DNA of 64,000 nucleotides from Deltaproteobacteria bacterium. GTDB taxonomy: Bacteria > Desulfobacterota > Binatia > UBA1149 > CAYXZP01. Where the stretch lies: NCBI GenBank assembly GCA_046583395.1, contig JAYGCK010000004.1:337-64336 (forward strand), in the 5' to 3' direction. Numbering within the stretch: position 1 is the stretch's first letter; every line of letters begins with the position of its first letter. The translations under genes were made by a program, and so were the position numbers. Under the pieces are notes generated by a model. It did not search any database and was not told the DNA's origin. It saw only the letters and a program-made list of their open reading frames with translations. Positions 2,310 through 54,431 of the stretch are shown piece after piece.

Positions 2310-4709
2310 TTAGTTCAGGCTAGCGCCGCTGTCTATCCAGTCACTAACGGCCTGGATTTGCGCTGCAGTGAGGGTCCCACCGGAGGGCATCTGCGCGCCG
2401 CTGCCTGTGCCCTCCAGCTTGTTAACCAAGTAGCTAAGTGACGAGTCTCCAGGCTCGACCAGGTCCGAGGGGGACTGACCCGACGTCACGCCGACAAGGG
2501 CATTGTATGAACTCACGGCGTCCTCGAATCCGCCCAGGCCCCCTGAGGCCGCACCACTGCTGTGGCAGCCTACACAGGACGACGAGATCGAGTCGTATAT
2601 GGCTCTCCAGGAATTCGCAGGAGATGTGCAGTTCGAACCCGCAGGGGGCTCGGCCACACTGCCATCGTCACAAAGGCCCTCGAATTCCATCGAGACCGTG
2701 ATCCGTGATGGTCCGGGGCTACCCGCAGCAGTGTTTATCGCCATACTATTCGAAGGCGGGGTACAAAATGTTGCTACCACGTCACCGCCGTTCTGACTGG
2801 TGTCACCTTCGGCGGTGATCGGGTCGGTGAAGCATGAGCGAGGCTCAGTGAGAGAGCAGGAGCCGCAGTCGCCTCCTGGGCACTCTGAGTTAAGAGCCTG
2901 GCAGTCTCCGTCGGTCTGACATGCCAGGATTCCCCCTCCATTGGCTCTGAGCATGCCGTCGCAGAAGGTGGCTGCCGGGCCAGCGTTGCAGACGCCGTCG
3001 GTGCAGACGCCATCGGCACAAGAGTTAGGCCAACGGTTGGCGCCACCACCGTTGCTGGTGCAGGTCCCTGCACCGGCCGCAGAACATTCCGCGTCCGAGT
3101 TGCACGGTAGGCTCGTGTCTCCCGAACATACCGCGCAGGCGCAGGCGTAACTCGTGAAGGGAGAGTCGCACTGCGTGTTGAACGGCAGCGAGACACTGCC
3201 CCCGGTGATGGTGAACGAGATATTCAGGCCCGCACCAGAGATGTTGGCTCCGTCCGGGGGGCAGTGGTAGCTGACCGATCCGAAGGTCGGGTGGTTAGCG
3301 TTCACGTCGCATGACTGACCGTCGCGCGATCCACCGTTGCATGTACCACCGTTGTTGCCGTCGTTGGCTGCACCGTCACCATCACAGGTAGGGCAAGGCT
3401 GACTCTGGCTGATCCCCAGACGCACGACCGCAGAACTCCTGATGGTGGTCTCGGCTGTGGCTGTCCCCTGATCGACCGATCCCTCAAGGTCATCGGTGAT
3501 GTTGGTCATAACGCACACCGGCGCACCGCCGGCAGAAAGTGGTAGCGGTGGTCCAAAGTGACAGTTGCATGTCGCGCCACCGCAGTCGTCAGCATCAGGT
3601 CCGGCTACGGTGTCGCAGGTCTGGGTGTAGTCGTTCGAGCAGCGGCAGTTTGCCCAGGGCTGGGTCTTGTCCGGGTCTAGCTCCACCCCGCAGTTGCGGC
3701 AGTCAGCATCGCAGCCGGTAAATGACGCCTGACCGATGAAGCCGTCGAGTATGTCGACGCCGTGCCCCATGCCGGTCCAGCCGGTATCAAGGCCGGTGTT
3801 GGTAAGCTGAACGCCGGTGCCAGCGAACGATTTGATCTGAACCTTAGCGGCACAGCGCGGCGCGATCACAAACTGAGATGACACTAAGCCGCGGGCCTGC
3901 TTGTCCGCGATGGTCTCAACGCAGTCCTTGATCTGCTGAGGAGTGTCGCCGCACGATTCGATCGCGTTCAGTTCTGCCAGGCTAAGCCCGCTGCAGCTCT
4001 TGTCGACGGACCCCATGGCCTTGGCAAGCGCTTTGGCGATCTTGCCTTTACCGTCGTAGTTGGCCTGGCTCCATACAGCCGTGCCACCGGCCTTATCGCT
4101 GCCGGCCTGGGCCTTCCCACGTTCCTTGGCCACGGTGTCGATGTACTTCATGTAGGCCTTGGGCAGGGTGCCGTGGCATTTGAGCTGCCCTTTGCTCAGC
4201 GAGCTGGGGCCAGGAAGCCCTATGATGTCGCGTGCGCTCTGTTGGACCTGGGCATTGGCTAGGGCGATCAGGCAGTCACCCAACTCACCGAAGTCGTCGA
4301 TGCCATCGGTGGCACCACCGTCGTCCGTTGCCTGGCCTGGGCTCGGACAACGTTCGAAGTTTGCAAGTACGTTGGTGTAGACTTGGCCGGACTTCTTGTC
4401 CTTGCACTTGCTCTTGGCGCCATGGATCGATCCACGAAGCTTACTGGCCGCTTTAGGGACCTTGGTCTTGATGTCAGCCTCACTGAGATCGTTGCAGTTC
4501 TTGCTCGACGAGATCTTGCCCTTATCGCGGCTTTTGTGACATCCGCCGATGGCCTTCTGGGCCGTTGAGACGTACTTGCCAAGCCCCTTGGAGATGGTTG
4601 CGCGGCACTTCATCTCGCCCTTGTCCCAGGCGTCAGCCGGGGCGGCCGACAGTACAAAAACGATCGCGGCCACGGTTGCGACTGCTTTGCTATATGCGGA
4701 TGTCACCAT
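2310..4709 (-). CDS. Secreted 799-aa Cys-rich protein (paralog B): signal peptide, Lys-rich N-terminal region, Cys-rich central region, C-terminal PSCyt1-like cytochrome-c-type domain (CVGCH ... VEPGDSSLSYLV ... MP ... WIDSGA)
   Basis: Complete ORF from the track. N-terminal MVTSAYSKAVATVAAIVFVLSAAPADA is a signal peptide. There are more than 60 Cys. The C-terminal ~90 aa match the PSCyt1 (PF07635-type) consensus, recalled from memory. A TAA stop and a terminator follow. Confidence 0.8.
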   Translation of the reverse strand: MVTSAYSKAVATVAAIVFVLSAAPADAWDKGEMKCRATISKGLGKYVSTAQKAIGGCHKSRDKGKISSSKNCNDLSEADIKTKVPKAASKLRGSIHGAKSKCKDKKSGQVYTNVLANFERCPSPGQATDDGGATDGIDDFGELGDCLIALANAQVQQSARDIIGLPGPSSLSKGQLKCHGTLPKAYMKYIDTVAKERGKAQAGSDKAGGTAVWSQANYDGKGKIAKALAKAMGSVDKSCSGLSLAELNAIESCGDTPQQIKDCVETIADKQARGLVSSQFVIAPRCAAKVQIKSFAGTGVQLTNTGLDTGWTGMGHGVDILDGFIGQASFTGCDADCRNCGVELDPDKTQPWANCRCSNDYTQTCDTVAGPDADDCGGATCNCHFGPPLPLSAGGAPVCVMTNITDDLEGSVDQGTATAETTIRSSAVVRLGISQSQPCPTCDGDGAANDGNNGGTCNGGSRDGQSCDVNANHPTFGSVSYHCPPDGANISGAGLNISFTITGGSVSLPFNTQCDSPFTSYACACAVCSGDTSLPCNSDAECSAAGAGTCTSNGGGANRWPNSCADGVCTDGVCNAGPAATFCDGMLRANGGGILACQTDGDCQALNSECPGGDCGSCSLTEPRSCFTDPITAEGDTSQNGGDVVATFCTPPSNSMAINTAAGSPGPSRITVSMEFEGLCDDGSVAEPPAGSNCTSPANSWRAIYDSISSSCVGCHSSGAASGGLGGFEDAVSSYNALVGVTSGQSPSDLVEPGDSSLSYLVNKLEGTGSGAQMPSGGTLTAAQIQAVSDWIDSGASLN

Positions 4710-8677: not shown

Positions 8678-9162
8678 GGTTCGTAGAGCCGCACTCTTTT
8701 AGCGTCGTCGGTTGCCGCCAACAAGGCCGACACTGTGCGTCCACACACAGGGTGGACCAGATCGGGGGCCAGCTCCGACATTGGCAAGAGGACAAAGCGG
8801 CGCTCGGAGAGGCGGGGGTGGGGCACCACAAGCTCGGGCTGGTCGATGATTCGGCCGTCGTAGAAAAGGATATCCAGGTCTATCGTCCGCGAAATCGAAG
8901 CGCCGCCCCGCTTGCGCCCCATCGAGGTCTCGAGCGCCTGTAGCTCACCGAGGAGGGTGCCGGGGTCGAGGTCGGTGGATATTTCGACTGCGCCGTTGAG
9001 GAACCAGTTCCGTGCCCGGCCGTGCGGTTCGCTCTCGTAGACCGACGAGCAGCGCTTTAGCCTGGTGGCTTCGAGCCGCCCCAGGCCCGCCATTGCGGTC
9101 TGCAGGTTGGCGTACCGGTCGCCAAGGTTGCTGCCAATCGCGATGTAGACCGGGTGGCTCAC
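8674..9162 (-). CDS. folK: 2-amino-4-hydroxy-6-hydroxymethyldihydropteridine pyrophosphokinase (HPPK)
   Basis: [11 protein letters not shown] ... RTIDLDIL ... VVPHPR. A GTG start at 9160-9162 is chosen just downstream of the dapB stop. The ATG at 9300 would overlap dapB by 125 nt. Confidence 0.75.
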
Positions 9163-9175
9163 CCCGTGTTCGTGT

Positions 9176-9994
9176 TCAGTCCCCGGCCAGGACGTCTCGC
9201 ATGGAGTAGAGACCGGCCGGCTTTCCGGCCAGCCACGCGGCCGCGCTGAGAGCACCGAGGGCCAGGCAGTCGCGAGAGGTCGCACGGTGGACCAGTTCAA
9301 TCCGCTCGCCGTTGCCGACCAGCATGACCGTGTGCTCGCCGGCGCTATCGCCGCCGCGAAGAGCGACGACGCCTATCTCACCGCTAGGGCGGGCGCCGAC
9401 CGTGCCCTGCCTTGCCGTTACCAGGTCCTTGGCCGGATTGGCGCCGGAGGCCTCGGCCGCCCGTTCGGCCAGCGCAAGGGCGGTCCCGCTCGGAGAGTCT
9501 TTTTTCTGGTTGTGGTGGAGCTCGACGATCTCGCAGTCGAAATCCTTCCCGAGCATGCCCACGGCCGAGCCGACCAGTTCGGACAGTACGGCAACGCCGC
9601 GGCTGACGTTGGCCGCGATAAGCGTCGGCATGGTGGTGGCCAGCGACTCGGCCTCGGCACGCTGGCCGGCGTCCATCCCCGAGGAGCCGACCACGATGGC
9701 CAGGCCCTTGTCGGCGGCCGTGCGCATGTTCTCCAGCGAGGCTTCGGCACTGGTGAAGTCCAAACACACCGCACCCGGCTCGCCGGCCGAGGCCAGGTCT
9801 TGGCCGATCTCGACCCCGAGCGCTTCGGTGCCGGCCACCGTTCCGGCGTCCTGGCCGAGGACCGGGCTCGAGGCAGCCTCGGTGGCACCGACCACGGTGA
9901 AGCGCGGGTCCTGGTATGCCAGCGCGATAATTCTTTTGCCCATGCGCCCGGCAGCGCCGCAGACGATGAGCTCGACCTTTCGTTCGGAGCTCAT
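9176..9994 (-). CDS. dapB: 4-hydroxy-tetrahydrodipicolinate reductase
   Basis: MSSERKVELIVCGAAGRMGKRI ... EIVELHHNQKKDSPSGTA. The start ATG overlaps the dapA stop by 1 nt. Confidence 0.9.
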   Translation of the reverse strand: MSSERKVELIVCGAAGRMGKRIIALAYQDPRFTVVGATEAASSPVLGQDAGTVAGTEALGVEIGQDLASAGEPGAVCLDFTSAEASLENMRTAADKGLAIVVGSSGMDAGQRAEAESLATTMPTLIAANVSRGVAVLSELVGSAVGMLGKDFDCEIVELHHNQKKDSPSGTALALAERAAEASGANPAKDLVTARQGTVGARPSGEIGVVALRGGDSAGEHTVMLVGNGERIELVHRATSRDCLALGALSAAAWLAGKPAGLYSMRDVLAGD

Positions 9995-42633: not shown

Positions 42634-43467
42634 TCACGGGGCGTGGGCGAAGCCACGTTTCTCCATCAGCCATCGCAGTATGGCCTTGGTGGCACGCGGG
42701 TCGATTGAGAACACGGTGTCGGACCTTTTACTGGTCTGTGCCAGTAGCGCGTGCGGGGCGTCCTTTATGACCACGAGCTTGGTCGCAAGCTTGCTGCCCG
42801 GTTCGTTCTTACGCGCATCGGCGACGAACTCGCCGAACTGAAAACGGTCTTCGGGAGCCTCGTCACCGACGACCACCAGTGTTGGAGCTGTAATCCTCAC
42901 GGCGGCCCGTTCTCCGACCTGGTTCGACAAAAGTACCACGCCGGCCACCGGGTTGATGTCCTCGTAGCGGGGGTAGATTCCCGCGATTGTGCCCGTTCCC
43001 GAACTGTGGCCGATGAGGAACACGCGTGAGGCGTCTATGCGGGCATGGTCTACTGCCCGCCGGTAGGCTTCGAGCGCGGTCGAACGGTCAGTGGCGTAGC
43101 GCCCCGGACTACTGCGCCCGGCCCCCGGCGCGTCGTAACGAAAGACGGCAAAGCCATTGCTCACCAACAGGTCGGTCAGTCGGGCGTAGATGCCGTCGTC
43201 ACCTTCGTTGCCGGTATCGGGCAGCGAGCCGTGGCGGTCTATCCGGCCCGCCGGAGGAACCAACAGTACCAACGGTGCGTTACCTTCGGCGGGGAAGTCC
43301 CACTGCGCGGCCACCACCGAGTCGACGCTTTCGAAGGTGGTCTCGGCCACGGGCGGGCGTGAACCGGGCTTGGGCGAGGCCACGGCGGTGGTTGCCGCCA
43401 CCAGCATGGCCATTGCGACGGCCGCGCCGAGCTTTGTCCTGAGCGGAGATGTCGTAGGGGCTGTCAA
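42634..43467 (-). CDS. Secreted alpha/beta hydrolase
   Basis: Signal peptide, GHSSG nucleophile elbow. Confidence 0.7.
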   Translation of the reverse strand: MTAPTTSPLRTKLGAAVAMAMLVAATTAVASPKPGSRPPVAETTFESVDSVVAAQWDFPAEGNAPLVLLVPPAGRIDRHGSLPDTGNEGDDGIYARLTDLLVSNGFAVFRYDAPGAGRSSPGRYATDRSTALEAYRRAVDHARIDASRVFLIGHSSGTGTIAGIYPRYEDINPVAGVVLLSNQVGERAAVRITAPTLVVVGDEAPEDRFQFGEFVADARKNEPGSKLATKLVVIKDAPHALLAQTSKRSDTVFSIDPRATKAILRWLMEKRGFAHAP

Positions 43468-43522
43468 GGAAGGCCGCGGGCCTGCCGCGGACTTTCAATC
43501 TGTGCTCCAGCAGCGCGGTGAG

Positions 43523-43759
43523 TCAAGACGGCCAACCCCGGCATGCTAGCGCTTCGCCGATGTGCGCGGCCGCAATCAGTTCGCTGTCGGCGAGGTCGGC
43601 GATAGTACGGGCAACGCGGGTCGTGCGTACGATTGAACGGCCACTGAGCCCGAGCTTGACCGCTGCTCTTACCATGAGCCGGTCGGCCTCGGGGCACAAG
43701 GTCTCGATGAGCGGCCGGGCCTGCGGCCGTTCCCGTGCACGACGGCGGGCCCGTCGGTA
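43523..43759 (-). pseudogene. 3'-terminal remnant (~75 codons) of comM/yifB (Mg-chelatase-like competence protein)
   Basis: Minus-strand frame reads ..ARPLIETLCPEADRLMVRAAVKLGLSGRSIVRTTRVARTIADLADSELIAAAHIGEALACRGWPS*. This matches the YifB/ComM C-terminus (LGLS.R ... RVARTIADL ... EAL.YR). An in-frame stop lies at 43760-43762. No AAA+ or N-terminal part exists in any frame upstream. Confidence 0.6.
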
Positions 43760-43869
43760 TCAATGACCCATCTGTTATTTAGCGCGTCGCGTCCGTCCGG
43801 CCTATTTGTCACGGGGCTCGCTCTGAGGGCTACGCTGGAAGTTCCGGTCGCACGCCGTAGGATGGGGCC

Positions 43870-44436
43870 GTGCTGTTGATGATCGATAACTATGACTCGT
43901 TCACCTACAACCTGGTTCAGTACCTGGGCGAGCTGGGTGCCGAGATAGAGGTCCACCGCAACGATCGTATCTCGGTCGAGGAGGTCCAGGCCAGGTCGCC
44001 CTCGGCCCTGCTTGTTTCGCCGGGCCCCTGCGACCCGGACAAGGCCGGCATCTCGGTTGACCTCATAAAGGCCATGGCCGGCCAGGTCCCGGTCCTCGGC
44101 GTGTGCCTCGGGCACCAGTGCGTCGGCCAGGCCTTCGGGGCCCGAATCGTACGCGCCGACCGTCTAATGCACGGCAAGACCTCGCCGATAGAGCACGACG
44201 GCCGCGGAATTTTCGAGGGGCTCGAACAGGGCTTTACCGCCACACGCTATCATTCGCTCATCGTTGAACGTGCCAGCATTCCCGAGGACTTCGAGATAAG
44301 CGCGTGGACGGCCGAGGGCGAGATTATGGGTCTTCGTCACAAGGAGATGGCCATCGACGGCGTTCAGTTCCATCCCGAATCGATACTGACAGAGGCCGGC
44401 AAGCAGTTGCTCGGTAACTTCCTGGCCACGCTGTGA
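43870..44436 (+). CDS. Glutamine amidotransferase of anthranilate / aminodeoxychorismate synthase (TrpG/PabA type)
   Basis: [19 protein letters not shown] ... GVCLGHQ ... HSL. Confidence 0.85.
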
Positions 44437-44951
44437 AGTTCGTCTCGCCATGGCCACGACGGTTGTGCACGGGCCTGTTGCTCTCGACAGCGGTCCTGGT
44501 CCTGCCGGGCTGCGCCACCTTGCGCGTTTTGCTCCTGCCGCGTTCCCCGTCGGCCGGGCCGGCCGGACAGCCGGCCGCGCAGGCCGTGGCGCCTAGCGGC
44601 GCCGAGCGGGCGCTGCTTTGCGGGGCCGCACGGGTATTGCAGGAGGCTGGCTTCAGTACCGCCGCGCTCGGAGACCGGGTGCTGGCCAACCGGCGTCTGC
44701 TACCCGAGCGCGGGCGCGTCGAGCTATTGGCCGGCCAATACGAGGTCGAAACGGACCCGGGCCACGAGGGGCCGGCGGTGCTTCGGTTGGCCTTGTCCGG
44801 CGGCGACGACGGCCTTTCCGTGGACCTTTCGACGGCGGGCTTTTCGATGAGCGCGGCCGCAGGCAAGGGCTTTGCCGAAGCGCTTCGTTCGGCGGCCTCC
44901 GATGCCGCGGCCTCGGCCGAATGCGCGCCTGGCCGGGCCGGACTTAAATAA
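44433..44951 (+). CDS. Hypothetical lipoprotein
   Basis: [13 protein letters not shown] lipobox. ATGA overlap with the upstream gene. Confidence 0.5.
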
Positions 44952-45048
44952 CAGTCCGGTCATTGCCCCCGCGGCGGGCCGGCTCGCCACGGGCCCTGTT
45001 TAGCCAGTGCGCCGATGAACTGCCCGCCCGCTCATCGATACCGGCGAG

Positions 45049-45354
45049 ATGTTCGCGGTCCTCGGACTCGGTCCCGCAGCCGGGGCCGCGGCCGGTGCCG
45101 GGGATGCCGAAAGTCCGGATAAGCCCGATAGGTCGCGGCTTCTCGCCCTTCTCAGGGACGGTCCCCAGCTGCTCGACGGGTTGGTTTCGGCCAGCGGGTT
45201 TGACGGCGCACGCGTCTTGGAGTTGTTAACAGCGCTCGAAATCGGGGGACTGGCCGAACGCACGTCGAGCGGCCTGTTCCGGGCCACGGTGAGACTCCGC
45301 CCGAACGGGGGGGGGGTTGACAACTGCGGCCCGACGGGCTTCCCGTATCAGAGG
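45049..45354 (+). pseudogene. Remnant of the dprA C-terminal winged-helix domain, in frame with topA
   Basis: SRLLALLRDGPQLLDGLVSASGFDGARVLELLTALEIGGLAERTSSGLFRATVR matches the DprA C-terminal (WH) consensus ..L..L..P...DeL....gl....l...L..LEl.GlV.r..Gg.y.r. No DprA Rossmann domain lies upstream in any frame. Confidence 0.5.
45307..45316. repeat. G10 homopolymeric tract 39-48 nt upstream of the topA ATG
   Basis: gggggggggg read directly. Confidence 0.6.
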
Positions 45355-47706
45355 ATGGCTGCAACCAAGCTTGTCATAGTGGAGTCGCCCGCCAAGGCGC
45401 GGACGCTGTCGCGCTATCTCGGCCGCGACTACCTCGTCAAGGCCTCGGTCGGTCACATCGCCGACCTGCCCAAGAGCAAGCTCGGTGTTGACGTCGACGA
45501 CAACTTCAAGCCCGACTACGAAATCATCCACGGCAAGGGCAAGGTCATCAAGGAGCTCAAGGCTGCGCTCAAGGGCAAGGACGCGCTCTATCTGGCACCC
45601 GACCCGGACCGTGAGGGCGAGGCCATTGCCTACCACATTGCCGAGCGTGTCGTGCCCAAGTCCTTCAAGGGTGAGGTGCACCGGGTGCTGTTCAACGAGA
45701 TTACGCGTTCGGGTGTCAAGGACGCCATCGCCAAGCCGGGAAAACTGGACATCGATAAGTTCGAAGCGCAGCAGGCCCGCCGTCTGATAGACCGTCTGGT
45801 CGGTTATCAGATAAGTCCATTGCTGTGGGAGAAGGTGCGTCGTGGTCTTTCGGCCGGACGCGTGCAGTCGGTGGCCGTCCATCTGATTGTCGAACGCGAC
45901 CGTGCCATCAAGGCCTTCGAGGCCGTCGAGTATTGGAGCATCACCGCCTCGCTCAACCCGACCGATGATAAGGACGCCGTGTTCAAGGCGCGCCTCATCG
46001 AGGTCGGCGGCAGCAAGATTGATCTGGCAAAGCTGCGCGAGGGCAAGAAGGACGAGGCCTTCTTCATCGGCGACGAGAAACAGGCCGGCGATATCATCAG
46101 CCGTCTCCAGGGTCGCGACGATTGGAATGTCGCGGCCATCAAGCGCTCGGCGCGCACGCGCAAGGCTCCGCCGCCTTTTATCACCTCGACGCTTCAGCAG
46201 GAGGCCTCGCGCAAGCTCGGTTACCAGCCCCGCCGCACCATGTCGGCGGCCCAGCGCCTGTACGAGGGCGTAGACCTCGGCGAGCATGGGATGACCGGGC
46301 TTATAACCTACATGCGCACCGATTCGGTGCGTTCGGCCCCCGAGGCCATCGATGCGGTGCGCGGCTACATAAAGAAGGAGTACGGCCAGGACTATCTTCC
46401 CGACAAGCCCAACGCCTATAAGACCAAGAAGGCCGCGCAGGACGCTCACGAGGCCATACGCCCGGCTTCGATGGATCTGCCGCCTGCGGCGGTGGCCAAA
46501 CACCTCAAGGCCGAGGAGCTAAAGGTCTACACCTTGGTGTGGAACCGCTTTGCCGCCAGTCAGATGCGGCCGGCGGCCTACGACCAGACCAGCGTCGACA
46601 TATCGAGCGATGATTGCGTGTTCAGGGCCTCGGGGCAGGTGATGAAGTTCGACGGTTTTCTCAAGATTTACGAGGAGGGTCGCGACCAGCCCTCCGACGA
46701 CGACGATGACATCGGCGCCCTGCCCGAGCTTGCCGAAGGCCAGGGGCTGGGTATGTCCGGCTTGGAGCCCGCCCAGCACTTCACCCAGCCGCCGCCTCGG
46801 TTCACGCAGGCATCTCTCATTCGCGAACTCGAGGAGAACGGCATCGGCCGGCCTTCGACCTATGCCTCTATCATGTCGACCATCATCGGGCGCGAGTACG
46901 TCACCCAGGACGACAGCCGGCGATTGCTGTCCACGCAGTTGGGCGAACTGGTCACCGACCTTCTTACCGAGGCCTTCCCCGACATCCTCAACGTGGAGTT
47001 CACCGCCGGGCTTGAGGACCATCTCGACCTGGTGGAGGGGGGAAGCGAGGATTGGCTGACGGTCACAAAGCGATTCTACGAACCCTTCAAGGCCAATCTG
47101 GAAAAGGCCAAGGTGGAGATGCCCGACGTCAAGGGGCGCGTCGAGGAGACCGAACTTCCCTGCGAGAACTGTGGCCACAAGTTGGTCGTCAAGTGGGGCA
47201 AGAACGGGGAGTTCCTGGCCTGCCCCGACTACCCGGACTGTAAGTTCACCAGCAACTTCGTTCGCCTGGACGACGGCACCATCGAGATTGAGGAACCCGA
47301 GGAGACCGGAGAGGTCTGCGACGAGTGCTCCAGTCCGATGCAATACAAATGGGGGAGCTACGGTAAGTTCCTCGGTTGTTCGGCCTACCCAGAATGCAAG
47401 AACGTGCGTTCTCTCAACCGCCCGGTGCCGATCGGGCTGGCCTGTCCGCCCGAGCCGCTCGGCTGCGGCGAGGGTGAGATGATGCGCAAGGTCTCGCGCC
47501 GGGGCCGGGTGTTCTACGGGTGCAATCGCTATCCCAAGTGCGAGTTCGCGTTGTGGGACAAGCCGGTCGAGGCGCCCTGCCCGGAGTGCGACGCGGCCTT
47601 CGTGGTCGAGAAGACCACCAAGCGTGCCGGCACGGTCAGACGCTGCCCCAGCGAGGACTGCGAGTACCAGGAGAGCATCGGCGAAGTGACAGCCGAGCAG
47701 GCCTGA
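45355..47706 (+). CDS. topA: DNA topoisomerase I with C-terminal zinc-ribbon repeats
   Basis: MAATKLVIVESPAKARTLSRYLG ... Toprim, then the topo IA core, then four Cx2C ... Cx2C ribbons. Confidence 0.9.
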   Translation: MAATKLVIVESPAKARTLSRYLGRDYLVKASVGHIADLPKSKLGVDVDDNFKPDYEIIHGKGKVIKELKAALKGKDALYLAPDPDREGEAIAYHIAERVVPKSFKGEVHRVLFNEITRSGVKDAIAKPGKLDIDKFEAQQARRLIDRLVGYQISPLLWEKVRRGLSAGRVQSVAVHLIVERDRAIKAFEAVEYWSITASLNPTDDKDAVFKARLIEVGGSKIDLAKLREGKKDEAFFIGDEKQAGDIISRLQGRDDWNVAAIKRSARTRKAPPPFITSTLQQEASRKLGYQPRRTMSAAQRLYEGVDLGEHGMTGLITYMRTDSVRSAPEAIDAVRGYIKKEYGQDYLPDKPNAYKTKKAAQDAHEAIRPASMDLPPAAVAKHLKAEELKVYTLVWNRFAASQMRPAAYDQTSVDISSDDCVFRASGQVMKFDGFLKIYEEGRDQPSDDDDDIGALPELAEGQGLGMSGLEPAQHFTQPPPRFTQASLIRELEENGIGRPSTYASIMSTIIGREYVTQDDSRRLLSTQLGELVTDLLTEAFPDILNVEFTAGLEDHLDLVEGGSEDWLTVTKRFYEPFKANLEKAKVEMPDVKGRVEETELPCENCGHKLVVKWGKNGEFLACPDYPDCKFTSNFVRLDDGTIEIEEPEETGEVCDECSSPMQYKWGSYGKFLGCSAYPECKNVRSLNRPVPIGLACPPEPLGCGEGEMMRKVSRRGRVFYGCNRYPKCEFALWDKPVEAPCPECDAAFVVEKTTKRAGTVRRCPSEDCEYQESIGEVTAEQA

Positions 47707-49530: not shown

Positions 49531-52500
49531 ATGCCCAAGGCCTTCCAACCCGCCGGCGGCCTTAGTGATGCCACCGGGCAGGCCCCGTCGCCGGCGCTTG
49601 CCCGGGGCTTCATCGAGCGTTTGACCGAGAGCGACGTCGGCCGTGGTCTTTCGGGCCTGACGGCCGAAAGACTGGGCGATCTCTGCTTCCTGCTTGGTTC
49701 GAGCCCGGCCTTGGCCAGACGGTTGCTCGCGCGCGGGACCGGATGGCCCCAACTTTTTGCTTCGGTATACGATGATGCCAACGGCAAGGGACCGCCGTCC
49801 GGTTCTGAGGCTGGCCGTCTGCAGGCCAGGCTGGCCGAACACGTGGCCGACGAGATGTTGCGCATCGGCGGCCGTGAGCTTTTAGGCCTTGCCGGGACAG
49901 CCGAGACCACCGCGCAGCTCAGCCGTCTGGCCGAAGGTGTTATCGAGGTCGCGCTTGCCGGTAGCCGACAGGCACTGGCCGCCGAACGCGAGCAGCCCTT
50001 GGATGCCAGAGGGCGCCCCCTGGGCTTCGTCGTTCTGGGGTTGGGCAAGCTCGGCGGCTCGGAACTCAACTATAGTTCGGACGTCGATCTCATCTATCTG
50101 CACGCGGGCTCGGACCGGACCGGCAGTGGTTCGGTGGCTCCCTTCTTCGACCAATTGGCCAAACGGCTTACCGCGATGCTCGCCGGCACCGGTTATCCGT
50201 CGTCCTGCTTTCGTGTCGATATGCGGCTCAGACCCTACGGGCGTGATGGCCCCCTGGTCTGCTCGGCCCAGGCCGCGCTCGATTACTACCAGCGTGCGGG
50301 GGAGACCTGGGAGCGTGGCGCTCTGATAAAGGCCCGTCCCGTGGCCGGCGACCTCGAGCTTGGCCGTGACTTCATCGAGCGGGTGGCCCCGTTCATATAC
50401 CGCCGCCACCTCGATTACCGCACGGCCGAGGACCTCAGGCTCATGAAGTCGCGCATCGACCAAGCTCAAAGCGGGAGCGGTCGCGCCGTGCGCGACGTCA
50501 AGATCGGCCCGGGCGGTATCCGCGAGATTGAGTTCGTTACCCAGCTCTTGCAGCTCGTTCACGGCGGACACGAGACCGGCGTGCGCGAACGCGGCACGGT
50601 CCGCGCGCTCGAGCTTCTCGAGGAGCACCGTTTTATCGGTTCAGAGCAGGCCATGGGCCTGCGCCAGGCCTACGGGTTCTTGCGGCAGGTCGAACACGCC
50701 GTCCAGGTTCCAGAGCAGCGCCAGACCCATACCCTGCCCACCGCCCCCGAAGGTCTCCGCCAGTTGGCCAGGCGTTTGGGCTACGGGAGCGGCCGGCGCG
50801 GCCGCGACCTGGGCGGGGATGAGGTCGCGAACTTCGAACGCGACTGGGGCCGCCACACCGGGTGTGTGCACGAGGTCTTTTTGCGCTTCCACGAACTGCG
50901 CCCACCCGAGAGCGGCCAGGGCAGCGCCTCCTCGGACCCGCTAAGTGCCGCCTTATTCGCCCATCTTGAGGCCGGCCGTTTGCGCGGGGCCGCTGACCTG
51001 CTCGAACAGCTCGGCTTTGGTGACGGCGAGCGCGCGGCCGGAGCCTTGGCGCGCCTGCAATCGGCCACAGAGACCGACACCGGCGGGCAGCGCACGCGGG
51101 CCGTGGCCGCGATGGCACCGTCGTTGGTAGAAGCGGCCGCGATATCCTCCGACCCCCAGTCATCGCTCGACAAGCTCGTTGACTTTCTCGTTCGTGCCGG
51201 TGCCCACACCAGTTACGCGGCTTTGTTGAGCGGCTCGGAATCGGCGATGCGAATTCTGGCAGTGCTCTTTTCGAGCAGTCCGTATCTGGCCGGGCTGCTG
51301 GTCGGACGTCCCGAGCTGCTCGATTGGTTGGCGCGCACGGCCGACCATGAGCGTCAGCCCGAACGCGCCGAGCTTGCCGCGGAAATCGTCGGGCGGCTCG
51401 CCGCTCCGGTCGCCGAGACCAAGACCAGCGGTGACGAGGAGCCGCTCTTGGCCCAGCTTCGTCTGTTCCGCACCGGACATCTGGTCCGCATCGGGATGGC
51501 CGACCTCGGTGGTGCGATAGACGACGCGGAGGTCCACGTGCAGTTGAGCCTTCTCGGCGAGGTCACTCTTGCCGCCGCGCTCGATGCCGCCCGTGACCTG
51601 CTTGGCACAGACCAGGCCCGAGGCGACTTGGGTAGGCTCGACCTGGCCGTGCTTGCACTCGGCAAGCTGGGCGGTCGCGAGATGAGCTATGGTTCCGACC
51701 TCGACCTCATCTTTGTCTATGATACCGGCAGTGCCGATTACGATGCCGGTTGCCACGCGCTGGCCACGCGCTGGGCCCAACGGTCGCTGGCGCTCTTGCA
51801 GACCCGGACCCGCGACGGGATTGCCTACCAGGTCGATACCAGGCTCAGGCCTTCGGGTTCGAGCGGACCGCTGGTGGTCTCGCTGGCGCGTTTTGCCGAG
51901 TACCATGCCGGTGAGGCGGCACTGTGGGAGCGCCAGGCTCACATCAAGGGGCGGGTGGTGTACGGAGGCACCGAACTGGCCGCACGAATCGAAGACCTGC
52001 GCCAAGGCTTTGTTTACGGGGCCGGCCTCGACAGTGCAGGTGTGGCCGAGATTGACCGAATGCGGCGCCGCATGGAAGCCGAACTGGCCCGCGAGTCGAG
52101 CCGGGGACGCAACATAAAGAGCGGGCGCGGGGCATTGGCCGATATCGATTTCCTGGCCCAGATGCTCGGGCTCGGCCACGGCGGCCGCCAGCCCGGAATG
52201 CGCCAGCGTTCGACGCTGTCGATTCTGGCCGCAGCCGCCGACAACGGACTTCTAGGCGCACACGAGGCGGCAGCCCTCATCGAGGACTATCGATTCTTGC
52301 GCCGTCTCGAATCCCGCTTGCGGCTCGAGCGCGACCGTCCCGTCGAACGCTTGGGGGACGATCCTCACGAGCTCGAACCCTTGGCCCTTAGACTGGGTTT
52401 CACTGCAAGGGATGCAGGAGCCGAACTGTCGGCGAACTACGACGCGACCTGCCAACGAGTGCGCGCCGCTTACGAAAGACACTTCGCGATAACCCGTTGA
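49531..52500 (+). CDS. glnE: Bifunctional glutamine synthetase adenylyltransferase / adenylyl-removing enzyme
   Basis: Two nucleotidyltransferase modules: GKLGGSELNYSSDVDLIY and GKLGGREMSYGSDLDLIF. Confidence 0.85.
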   Translation: MPKAFQPAGGLSDATGQAPSPALARGFIERLTESDVGRGLSGLTAERLGDLCFLLGSSPALARRLLARGTGWPQLFASVYDDANGKGPPSGSEAGRLQARLAEHVADEMLRIGGRELLGLAGTAETTAQLSRLAEGVIEVALAGSRQALAAEREQPLDARGRPLGFVVLGLGKLGGSELNYSSDVDLIYLHAGSDRTGSGSVAPFFDQLAKRLTAMLAGTGYPSSCFRVDMRLRPYGRDGPLVCSAQAALDYYQRAGETWERGALIKARPVAGDLELGRDFIERVAPFIYRRHLDYRTAEDLRLMKSRIDQAQSGSGRAVRDVKIGPGGIREIEFVTQLLQLVHGGHETGVRERGTVRALELLEEHRFIGSEQAMGLRQAYGFLRQVEHAVQVPEQRQTHTLPTAPEGLRQLARRLGYGSGRRGRDLGGDEVANFERDWGRHTGCVHEVFLRFHELRPPESGQGSASSDPLSAALFAHLEAGRLRGAADLLEQLGFGDGERAAGALARLQSATETDTGGQRTRAVAAMAPSLVEAAAISSDPQSSLDKLVDFLVRAGAHTSYAALLSGSESAMRILAVLFSSSPYLAGLLVGRPELLDWLARTADHERQPERAELAAEIVGRLAAPVAETKTSGDEEPLLAQLRLFRTGHLVRIGMADLGGAIDDAEVHVQLSLLGEVTLAAALDAARDLLGTDQARGDLGRLDLAVLALGKLGGREMSYGSDLDLIFVYDTGSADYDAGCHALATRWAQRSLALLQTRTRDGIAYQVDTRLRPSGSSGPLVVSLARFAEYHAGEAALWERQAHIKGRVVYGGTELAARIEDLRQGFVYGAGLDSAGVAEIDRMRRRMEAELARESSRGRNIKSGRGALADIDFLAQMLGLGHGGRQPGMRQRSTLSILAAAADNGLLGAHEAAALIEDYRFLRRLESRLRLERDRPVERLGDDPHELEPLALRLGFTARDAGAELSANYDATCQRVRAAYERHFAITR

Positions 52501-54422: not shown

Positions 54423-54431
54423 CCCCCCCCC
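54423..54431. repeat. C9 homopolymeric tract within a 360-nt GC-tract-rich intergenic region
   Basis: ccccccccc read directly. A G7 tract at ~54528-54534 lies nearby. Confidence 0.6.

Follow-up and report, generated by a model that had tools for sequence, protein, structure and literature searches.

The open reading frame of topoisomerase I in the stretch of DNA analysed here (64,000 nucleotides, hereafter the window) begins well upstream of the conserved start of TopA, and a preliminary description of the sequence had recognised the C-terminal domain of DprA in the additional codons. The question is whether this locus encodes a new DprA-TopA fusion protein, perhaps frame-switchable through the G tract that joins the two parts, or keeps the leftover of a decayed gene. 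We conclude that the feature is real but ordinary: it is the tail of a dprA pseudogene, not a designed fusion protein. It is very probable that dprA became a pseudogene by deletion and that the in-frame join of its tail to topA arose incidentally, as a polymorphic side effect of a slippage-prone run of G.

The topA frame is open since the stop at 45016-45018, and its first ATG (45049-45051, plus strand) stands 306 nt (102 codons) 5' of the ATG at 45355, just as had been described. Read from the first ATG, the long ORF (45049-47706, plus strand) comprises 885 amino acids, and topA from its native, conserved start (45355-47706, plus strand) 783; exact-sequence look-ups with the 885- and the 783-residue proteins gave no match. 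The protein has the features of a bacterial topoisomerase I of type IA, namely Toprim (PF01751, E=1.9e-18), Topoisom_bac (PF01131, E=1e-118) and, at the C-terminus, three Zn_ribbon_Top1 domains (PF01396), together with a conserved N-terminus abutting the first Toprim strand. This N-terminus, MAATKLVIVESPAKA, aligns with the TopA starts of all relatives, which follow the pattern MA(K/A).LVIVESPAKA and in most cases have an in-frame stop just 5' of it. The peptides that meet in the fused ORF are …RPNGGGVDNCGPTGFPYQR and MAATK….

A profile search confirmed the assignment of the extra 102 codons: DprA_WH (PF17782) scores 35.1 bits against the extension (curated cut-off 22.9; E=1.4e-8), and the match spans residues 19-73 of the extension, corresponding to profile positions 5-59 of 61, so that the winged-helix domain (45103-45267, plus strand) is complete. 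DprA also contains the DNA_processg_A domain, a Rossmann-like domain that binds single-stranded DNA and RecA. The preliminary description had noted the absence of such a domain upstream, rightly, since this catalytic domain (PF02481) found no match in any frame between 44952 and 45354, while the same search recovered it in the positive controls, the DprA proteins of the relatives L001 (E=9e-64) and L002 (E=2e-76). Measured as a DprA/Smf recombination mediator, the locus therefore has the winged helix and lacks the catalytic domain. A second dprA was not found within the 64-kb window, and tblastn with two full DprA proteins together with local alignment indicated that only residues 276-374 and 29-49 are retained there.

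What is missing becomes clear from the comparison with relatives. The closest one, the MAG contig CAYXZP010000022 (L001), has a TopA 89% identical to that of the window, and TopA is approximately 50-61% identical to that of many Candidatus Binatia and related 'Deltaproteobacteria' MAGs. In L001 the order is trpG, a lipoprotein gene, an intact dprA of 375 amino acids (8840-9967) and topA (from 10001), and its DprA carries DNA_processg_A at residues 75-279 and the winged helix at 312-361. The window has the same neighbours on one strand: trpG (43870-44436, plus strand), the lipoprotein gene (44433-44951, plus strand, lipobox LPGC), the remnant, topA and trmFO. Altogether, DprA homology was detected directly 5' of topA in 163 of the fetched loci and was absent in two, the dprA stop of the relatives being located 0-100 nt from the topA ATG, and a dprA-topA fusion was found in none of the approximately 160 relatives' loci. 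Some candidates had to be discarded in this survey. A script reported a full fusion in L083, where a TAG stands immediately 5' of the ATG; the long open frame 5' of topA in L007 is not in the dprA frame and is a high-GC artefact; and a single called protein with winged helix and Toprim (P0091, L163) was rejected as a precedent, since frameshifts occur throughout its contig. In L058 only a short dprA match is present, which looks like a frameshifted dprA of low quality.

The dprA residue in the window consists of two pieces. The N-terminal one, RRAGSPRALFSQCADELPAR (44972-45031, plus strand), corresponds to codons ~29-49 of the orthologue; against residues 29-49 of L001 DprA it reaches a local score of 50 with 13 of 20 positions identical, a score attained by 3 of 2000 shuffled sequences. 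The C-terminal one (45022-45306, plus strand) corresponds to residues 276-374, contains the winged helix found by Pfam, and in tblastn these residues of L001 DprA align to 45022-45312 with 53.5% identity (E=2e-22). The truncation of dprA that had been considered is thus strongly supported, nevertheless more of the gene survives than the last ~60 codons supposed at first: about 95 C-terminal codons and a 20-codon N-terminal fragment. Their overlap is GCCCGCCCGC (45022-45031, plus strand), where both parental contexts align, and the two pieces are mutually out of frame. In L001 the hexamer CGCCCG occurs at both parental sites, 8980 and 9668, which are 688 nt apart. The simplest reading of these alignments is that a single out-of-frame, microhomology-mediated deletion of ~688 nt would have removed codons ~50-275 with the entire catalytic domain; approximately 130 nt at the 5' end of dprA are missing too. 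An intact syntenic orthologue in a close relative, the loss of an essential domain and a disrupted frame together identify a pseudogene. Furthermore, the place of the first ATG (45049) is taken in the intact L001 orthologue by an internal GTG (Val) codon. Several neighbouring genes in the window have no Shine-Dalgarno sequence, therefore its absence 5' of this ATG is uninformative and the argument was dropped.

In order to see how the locus varies, 14 further contigs of the same marine species-level lineage, 96-100% identical to the window, were collected from JGI, ENA/TARA, NCBI and Logan assemblies; TARA Oceans and other metagenomes of marine origin supplied the nearest of the short contigs, and over 17 kb the window is 99.64% identical to the NCBI MAG contig JAYGCJ010000119 (L164, GCA_046583415.1). 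The exact deletion junction of the window is present in 13 of the 14, at 0-4% SNPs from the window. The fourteenth, L162, a single contig of 538 nt, has a different deletion, in which codons ~98-128 are kept and joined to about codon 297, and it also has an upstream frame break; neither deletion can be derived from the other. The 3' end of dprA is left in place by both deletions.

The run of ten G that had been noted at 45307-45316 (plus strand) is indeed present and reads GGG GGG GGG G, and it proved to be hypervariable. It is followed by an invariant TTGACA (45317-45322, plus strand) containing the ancestral dprA stop, TGA (45318-45320); in L001 dprA ends with ...AGC AGG GGG GAT TGA, its TGA being part of the same TTGACA. 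Because G10 directly precedes TTGACA in the window, the TGA is out of frame and the topA frame is entered. Counting as tract length the G run plus an optional A before TTGACA, length 8 occurs as G8 in L164 and L165 and as G7A in L162 and L170; length 10 as G10 in the window, L081 and L171; length 11 as G11 in L168, L169, L172, L173 and L174 and as G10A in L161; and length 17 as G17 in L167. L166 ends within the tract after at least nine G and was left out, which gives 14 scorable alleles. At lengths 8, 11 and 17 the TGA is in frame and closes a separate ORF of 89-92 amino acids (P0001, P0002, P0123-P0129), and only length 10 fuses the remnant to topA. Consequently 3 of the 14 scorable alleles are fused and 11 end at the ancestral TGA, and topA keeps its own ATG in all alleles, regardless of tract length.

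The fused alleles (window, L081, L171) stand on three distinct SNP backgrounds, therefore the fused state is recurrent. The nearest neighbours of L081 (L173) and of L171 (L161) have length 11, and the scorable nearest neighbours of the window, L164 and L165, have length 8. The recurrence may reflect real slippage or homopolymer miscalls; the fusion is polymorphic and may be technical in origin. It should be emphasized that these counts are not allele frequencies: most alleles were obtained through one protein cluster, which is biased against fused and third-frame forms, and only the window and L081, both of them fused, were found independently of the winged-helix protein cluster. In this sample, itself biased toward alleles with the stop in frame, most differences in tract length are multiples of three, and such steps could mean that the frame is under selection.

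The proposal that the winged helix has become an N-terminal extension of TopA accordingly holds only at the level of the ORF in the window allele. As a DprA-TopA fusion fixed in the lineage it fails: there is no catalytic domain, and the join is limited to the three alleles mentioned and occurs in none of the relatives' loci. Likewise, the suggested frame switching by way of the G tract stands as a sequence polymorphism (lengths 8, 10, 11 and 17), and biological switching is a candidate beside homopolymer sequencing error.

Substitution patterns were used to ask at which level the remnant is constrained. Among the alleles the ratio of segregating nonsynonymous to synonymous changes (N:S) amounts to 12:8 for the remnant ORF, the codon phase of its second half having been corrected by hand, to 11:37 for topA and to 4:19 for trmFO. 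The first half of the winged-helix coding region alone gives 9:6 (Fisher P=0.011 against topA), and the ratio of the remnant does not differ significantly from that of the fast-evolving lipoprotein gene (9:6). Constraint on the remnant at the protein level thus appears relaxed, although the similar ratio of the lipoprotein gene and the DNA-level constraint on part of the remnant qualify this reading.

That part is a block at 45194-45290 (plus strand), 65-160 nt 5' of the topA ATG, with 90-95% nucleotide identity to L001. Its identity to L001 equals that of the best parts of topA, and its SNP density is low across the 15 alleles. Of its 16 four-fold degenerate sites only one differs from L001, compared with 300 of 684 (44%) in topA, trpG and trmFO (P=0.0013), and a scan of topA found no run of 16 four-fold sites as conserved. 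This pattern of substitution indicates that the constraint on the block is acting on nucleotides and not on amino acids, and the conservation of synonymous sites suggests a second, non-coding role of the retained piece. A sigma-70 consensus scan of 43400-45500 revealed no promoter-like site, Rfam gave nothing at E<=1, and the predicted structure of the RNA from 45190-45375 is of ordinary stability (z=-1.44). The block is a candidate cis-acting control element of topA and is probably retained for that role. What novelty remains at this locus lies in this stretch of about 100 nt within former dprA coding sequence, which marks a candidate for topA control in a phylum without cultured members, and in the slight possibility that the switch serves a function.

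Among the alternatives the best surviving one is that the remnant ORF of 89-92 amino acids, its TGA 34 nt before topA, is functional as a small winged-helix protein or as a translated leader aiding the translation of topA, the fusion being a slippage error. The ATG and an ORF with a complete winged helix are intact in all 14 alleles, lengths 8, 11 and 17 all retain the ancestral frame, gene callers predict the ORF, and the distances between dprA stop and topA ATG in the relatives are compatible with coupling. However, the apparently relaxed N:S ratio speaks against a maintained protein, the sample is skewed to precisely this frame by its origin in one protein cluster, and the two alleles found outside that cluster are both fused. 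In addition, few new stops are expected anyway in gene-derived sequence of 69% GC at a few percent divergence. We regard a functional remnant ORF as unlikely, though deserving more credit than the other alternatives.

Less probable still is the recruitment of the winged helix as a real, phase-variable N-terminal extension of TopA, in which slippage in the G tract would add a Z-alpha-like winged helix as a DNA-binding module. In favour of it are the in-frame fusion on different backgrounds, the completeness of the domain above the Pfam cut-off, the polymorphic tract and the existence of TopA N-terminal extensions elsewhere (e.g. P0117), as well as the reported fusion in Myxococcus xanthus (PMC5817196). 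Against this, the majority of alleles are unfused and all have the native TopA start; replacements in the first half of the winged helix accumulate at a relaxed rate, and in the conserved half it is the synonymous sites that are conserved, a sign of constraint on DNA and not on protein; the start codon of the extension derives from an internal Val codon; none of the ~160 relatives' loci carries a fusion; and the one-base difference between G10 and G11 falls within sequencing error. It is equally doubtful, at a very low probability, that the poly-G is a true phase switch between a separate winged-helix leader ORF and a TopA isoform with the Z-alpha-like winged helix salvaged from dprA; if it were true, a subpopulation would have a topoisomerase I whose targeting to DNA is changed.

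An assembly artefact, in which an intact dprA at the locus was collapsed in the window, is scarcely credible, because beyond the general ability of MAG assemblies to collapse repeats nothing was found to support it, and an identical junction recurs in 13 other contigs, from the assembly sources named above, at 0-4% SNPs from the window, so that misassembly, named in advance as a ground for refutation, does not apply.

The dprA-topA(-gid/trmFO) arrangement is a classical one, exemplified by smf-topA-gid of B. subtilis. The present locus resembles this pair or operon in having dprA, topA and trmFO (gid) in order on one strand, with the remnant in the exact slot of dprA, and differs in that the catalytic domain is lost, the internal frame is broken and only the topA-proximal 3' end is left. 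The dprA-topA arrangement was found in 14 of 24 phyla, the gene order in N. meningitidis is dprA-smg-topA, and dprA and topA were stated to be fused in Myxococcus xanthus (PMC5817196), hence a dprA-topA fusion is not unprecedented. In the fusion reported for M. xanthus, as here, DprA-derived sequence and TopA share one frame; there, however, the whole dprA is involved, whereas here it is the winged-helix tail only, in a polymorphic state that depends on homopolymer length.

The G tract also recalls the poly-G contingency loci of Neisseria, Haemophilus and Campylobacter, in which tract length sets the frame and several natural lengths exist. Here length varies among strains and the reading frame shifts, as known between assemblies only; the likeness is in sequence behaviour only, the essential topA keeps its own start at any tract length, and the variation may be partly technical. 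With deletional pseudogenes of reductive evolution, formed through microhomology, the locus shares short direct repeats and the presence of similar lesions in the comM stub and, in strain L168, in glnE and comM; it differs from them in that the retained piece has a block conserved at synonymous sites. As a caution, the high-GC tail of a pseudogene reading into the next gene can mimic a domain fusion, and in this case the population comparison exposes the fusion of the window as a homopolymer-dependent accident.

Returning to the pseudogene reading, the ancestral order was trpG-lipoprotein-dprA-topA-trmFO. A deletion of ~688 nt between CGCCCG direct repeats then removed codons ~50-275 and left the pieces out of frame, with ~130 nt also lost from the 5' end of dprA. 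The tract before the ancestral TGA varies by strain, and at length 10 the reading frame bypasses the stop and happens to enter that of topA. TopA is presumably made from its own ATG, and the extension may be untranslated or made in small amounts as a by-product. As for the final ~160-270 nt of dprA, they may have been kept for nucleotide-level signals, such as a promoter or leader, that express the essential topA. In favour of this, both independent deletion alleles spare the dprA 3' end, and the deletion and an earlier trpG-lipoprotein insertion removed the ancestral region upstream of dprA. N. meningitidis points the same way: a dprA null mutant of this species continues to make TopA, and a predicted promoter lies within its dprA gene (PMC5817196).

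The loss of dprA is accompanied by that of a neighbour. Only the last ~85 codons of comM (43538-43753, minus strand) are left, with a Pfam match to Mg_chelatase_C on 43523-43699 (E=3.2e-14) and, in tblastn, to residues 423-507 of L002 ComM (E=1e-9); the stub was also called in L164 and L168. In seven relatives of ~60% identity (L002, L004-L008 and L010) comM on the minus strand and dprA on the plus strand form an intact divergent pair. The lineage may be shedding its genes for recombination of incoming DNA, because the adjacent comM is also just a stub. Since dprA and comM have both been lost at this locus, this marine Binatia-like lineage is probably no longer naturally transformable by the canonical route. 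Strain L168 has two more deletions at short repeats, one of 103 nt within the comM stub and one of ~2.6 kb, in frame, within glnE.

Besides the dprA remnant, the window carries comM as a C-terminal stub (43538-43753, minus strand; Mg_chelatase_C, about the last 85 codons); the two are separated by trpG and a lipoprotein gene. In the relatives at about 60% identity the divergent neighbour of dprA is a full-length comM. Since comM is a stub and dprA a remnant, both of these DNA-uptake recombination genes are in decay in the lineage of the window. The erosion of the gene remnants is still ongoing: in L168 (JGI Ga0496640_0001777), another contig of this lineage, the comM stub has been shortened by an additional deletion of 103 nt (L168 about 619-629, corresponding to window 43690-43792), which is flanked by CCGG.CGGCCT repeats. 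The same strain has also lost about 2.6 kb of glnE in frame (L168 6351-6722 versus window 49736-52322); an ORF of 123 aa remains, the junction of the deletion is located at a short GCGCG-type repeat, and the lesion is of the same style as that of dprA.

A dprA lesion unlike the window type was observed in L162, one TARA contig of 538 nt from the same lineage (L162 1-130): codons of about 98-128 are retained with a frame break upstream, followed by an in-frame join to about codon 297. It has 3' SNPs in common with L170, a contig of the lineage carrying the window-type deletion, a hint that haplotypes have recombined or that the L162 contig is a chimera.

On L163 (Logan SRR31481469), from an unrelated organism, one called protein (P0091, 212 aa; 436-1074) contains both DprA_WH and Toprim; this contig is probably an assembly riddled with errors, since its dprA pieces are spread over all three frames and its topA is broken. 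In L058, a Binataceae MAG locus, the dprA upstream of topA is divided between two frames (3000-4100) and its WH tail is not recognisable; it is either another decaying copy or the product of a low-quality assembly.

The G10 tract preceding topA is by itself statistically unexceptional, because the number of G8 matches in the window (7 observed, 8.6 expected from shuffles) agrees with the shuffle prediction; the only other 9-G runs are at 2206-2214 and 54423-54431, both on the minus strand. In the dprA-topA spacer (45317-45354, plus strand) the elements TTGACA and TTCCCGT are identical in the window lineage and in its closest relative, L001, and no -10-like hexamer stands downstream at a distance of 16-18 nt. 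On the other side of the remnant a hairpin (44938-44959, plus strand; 7-bp stem CCGGACT/AGTCCGG, 8-nt loop) extends across the stop codon of the lipoprotein gene. It was ruled out as a canonical terminator because it is without a T run; its stem is preserved through G-U pairs in L161, a further contig of the lineage.
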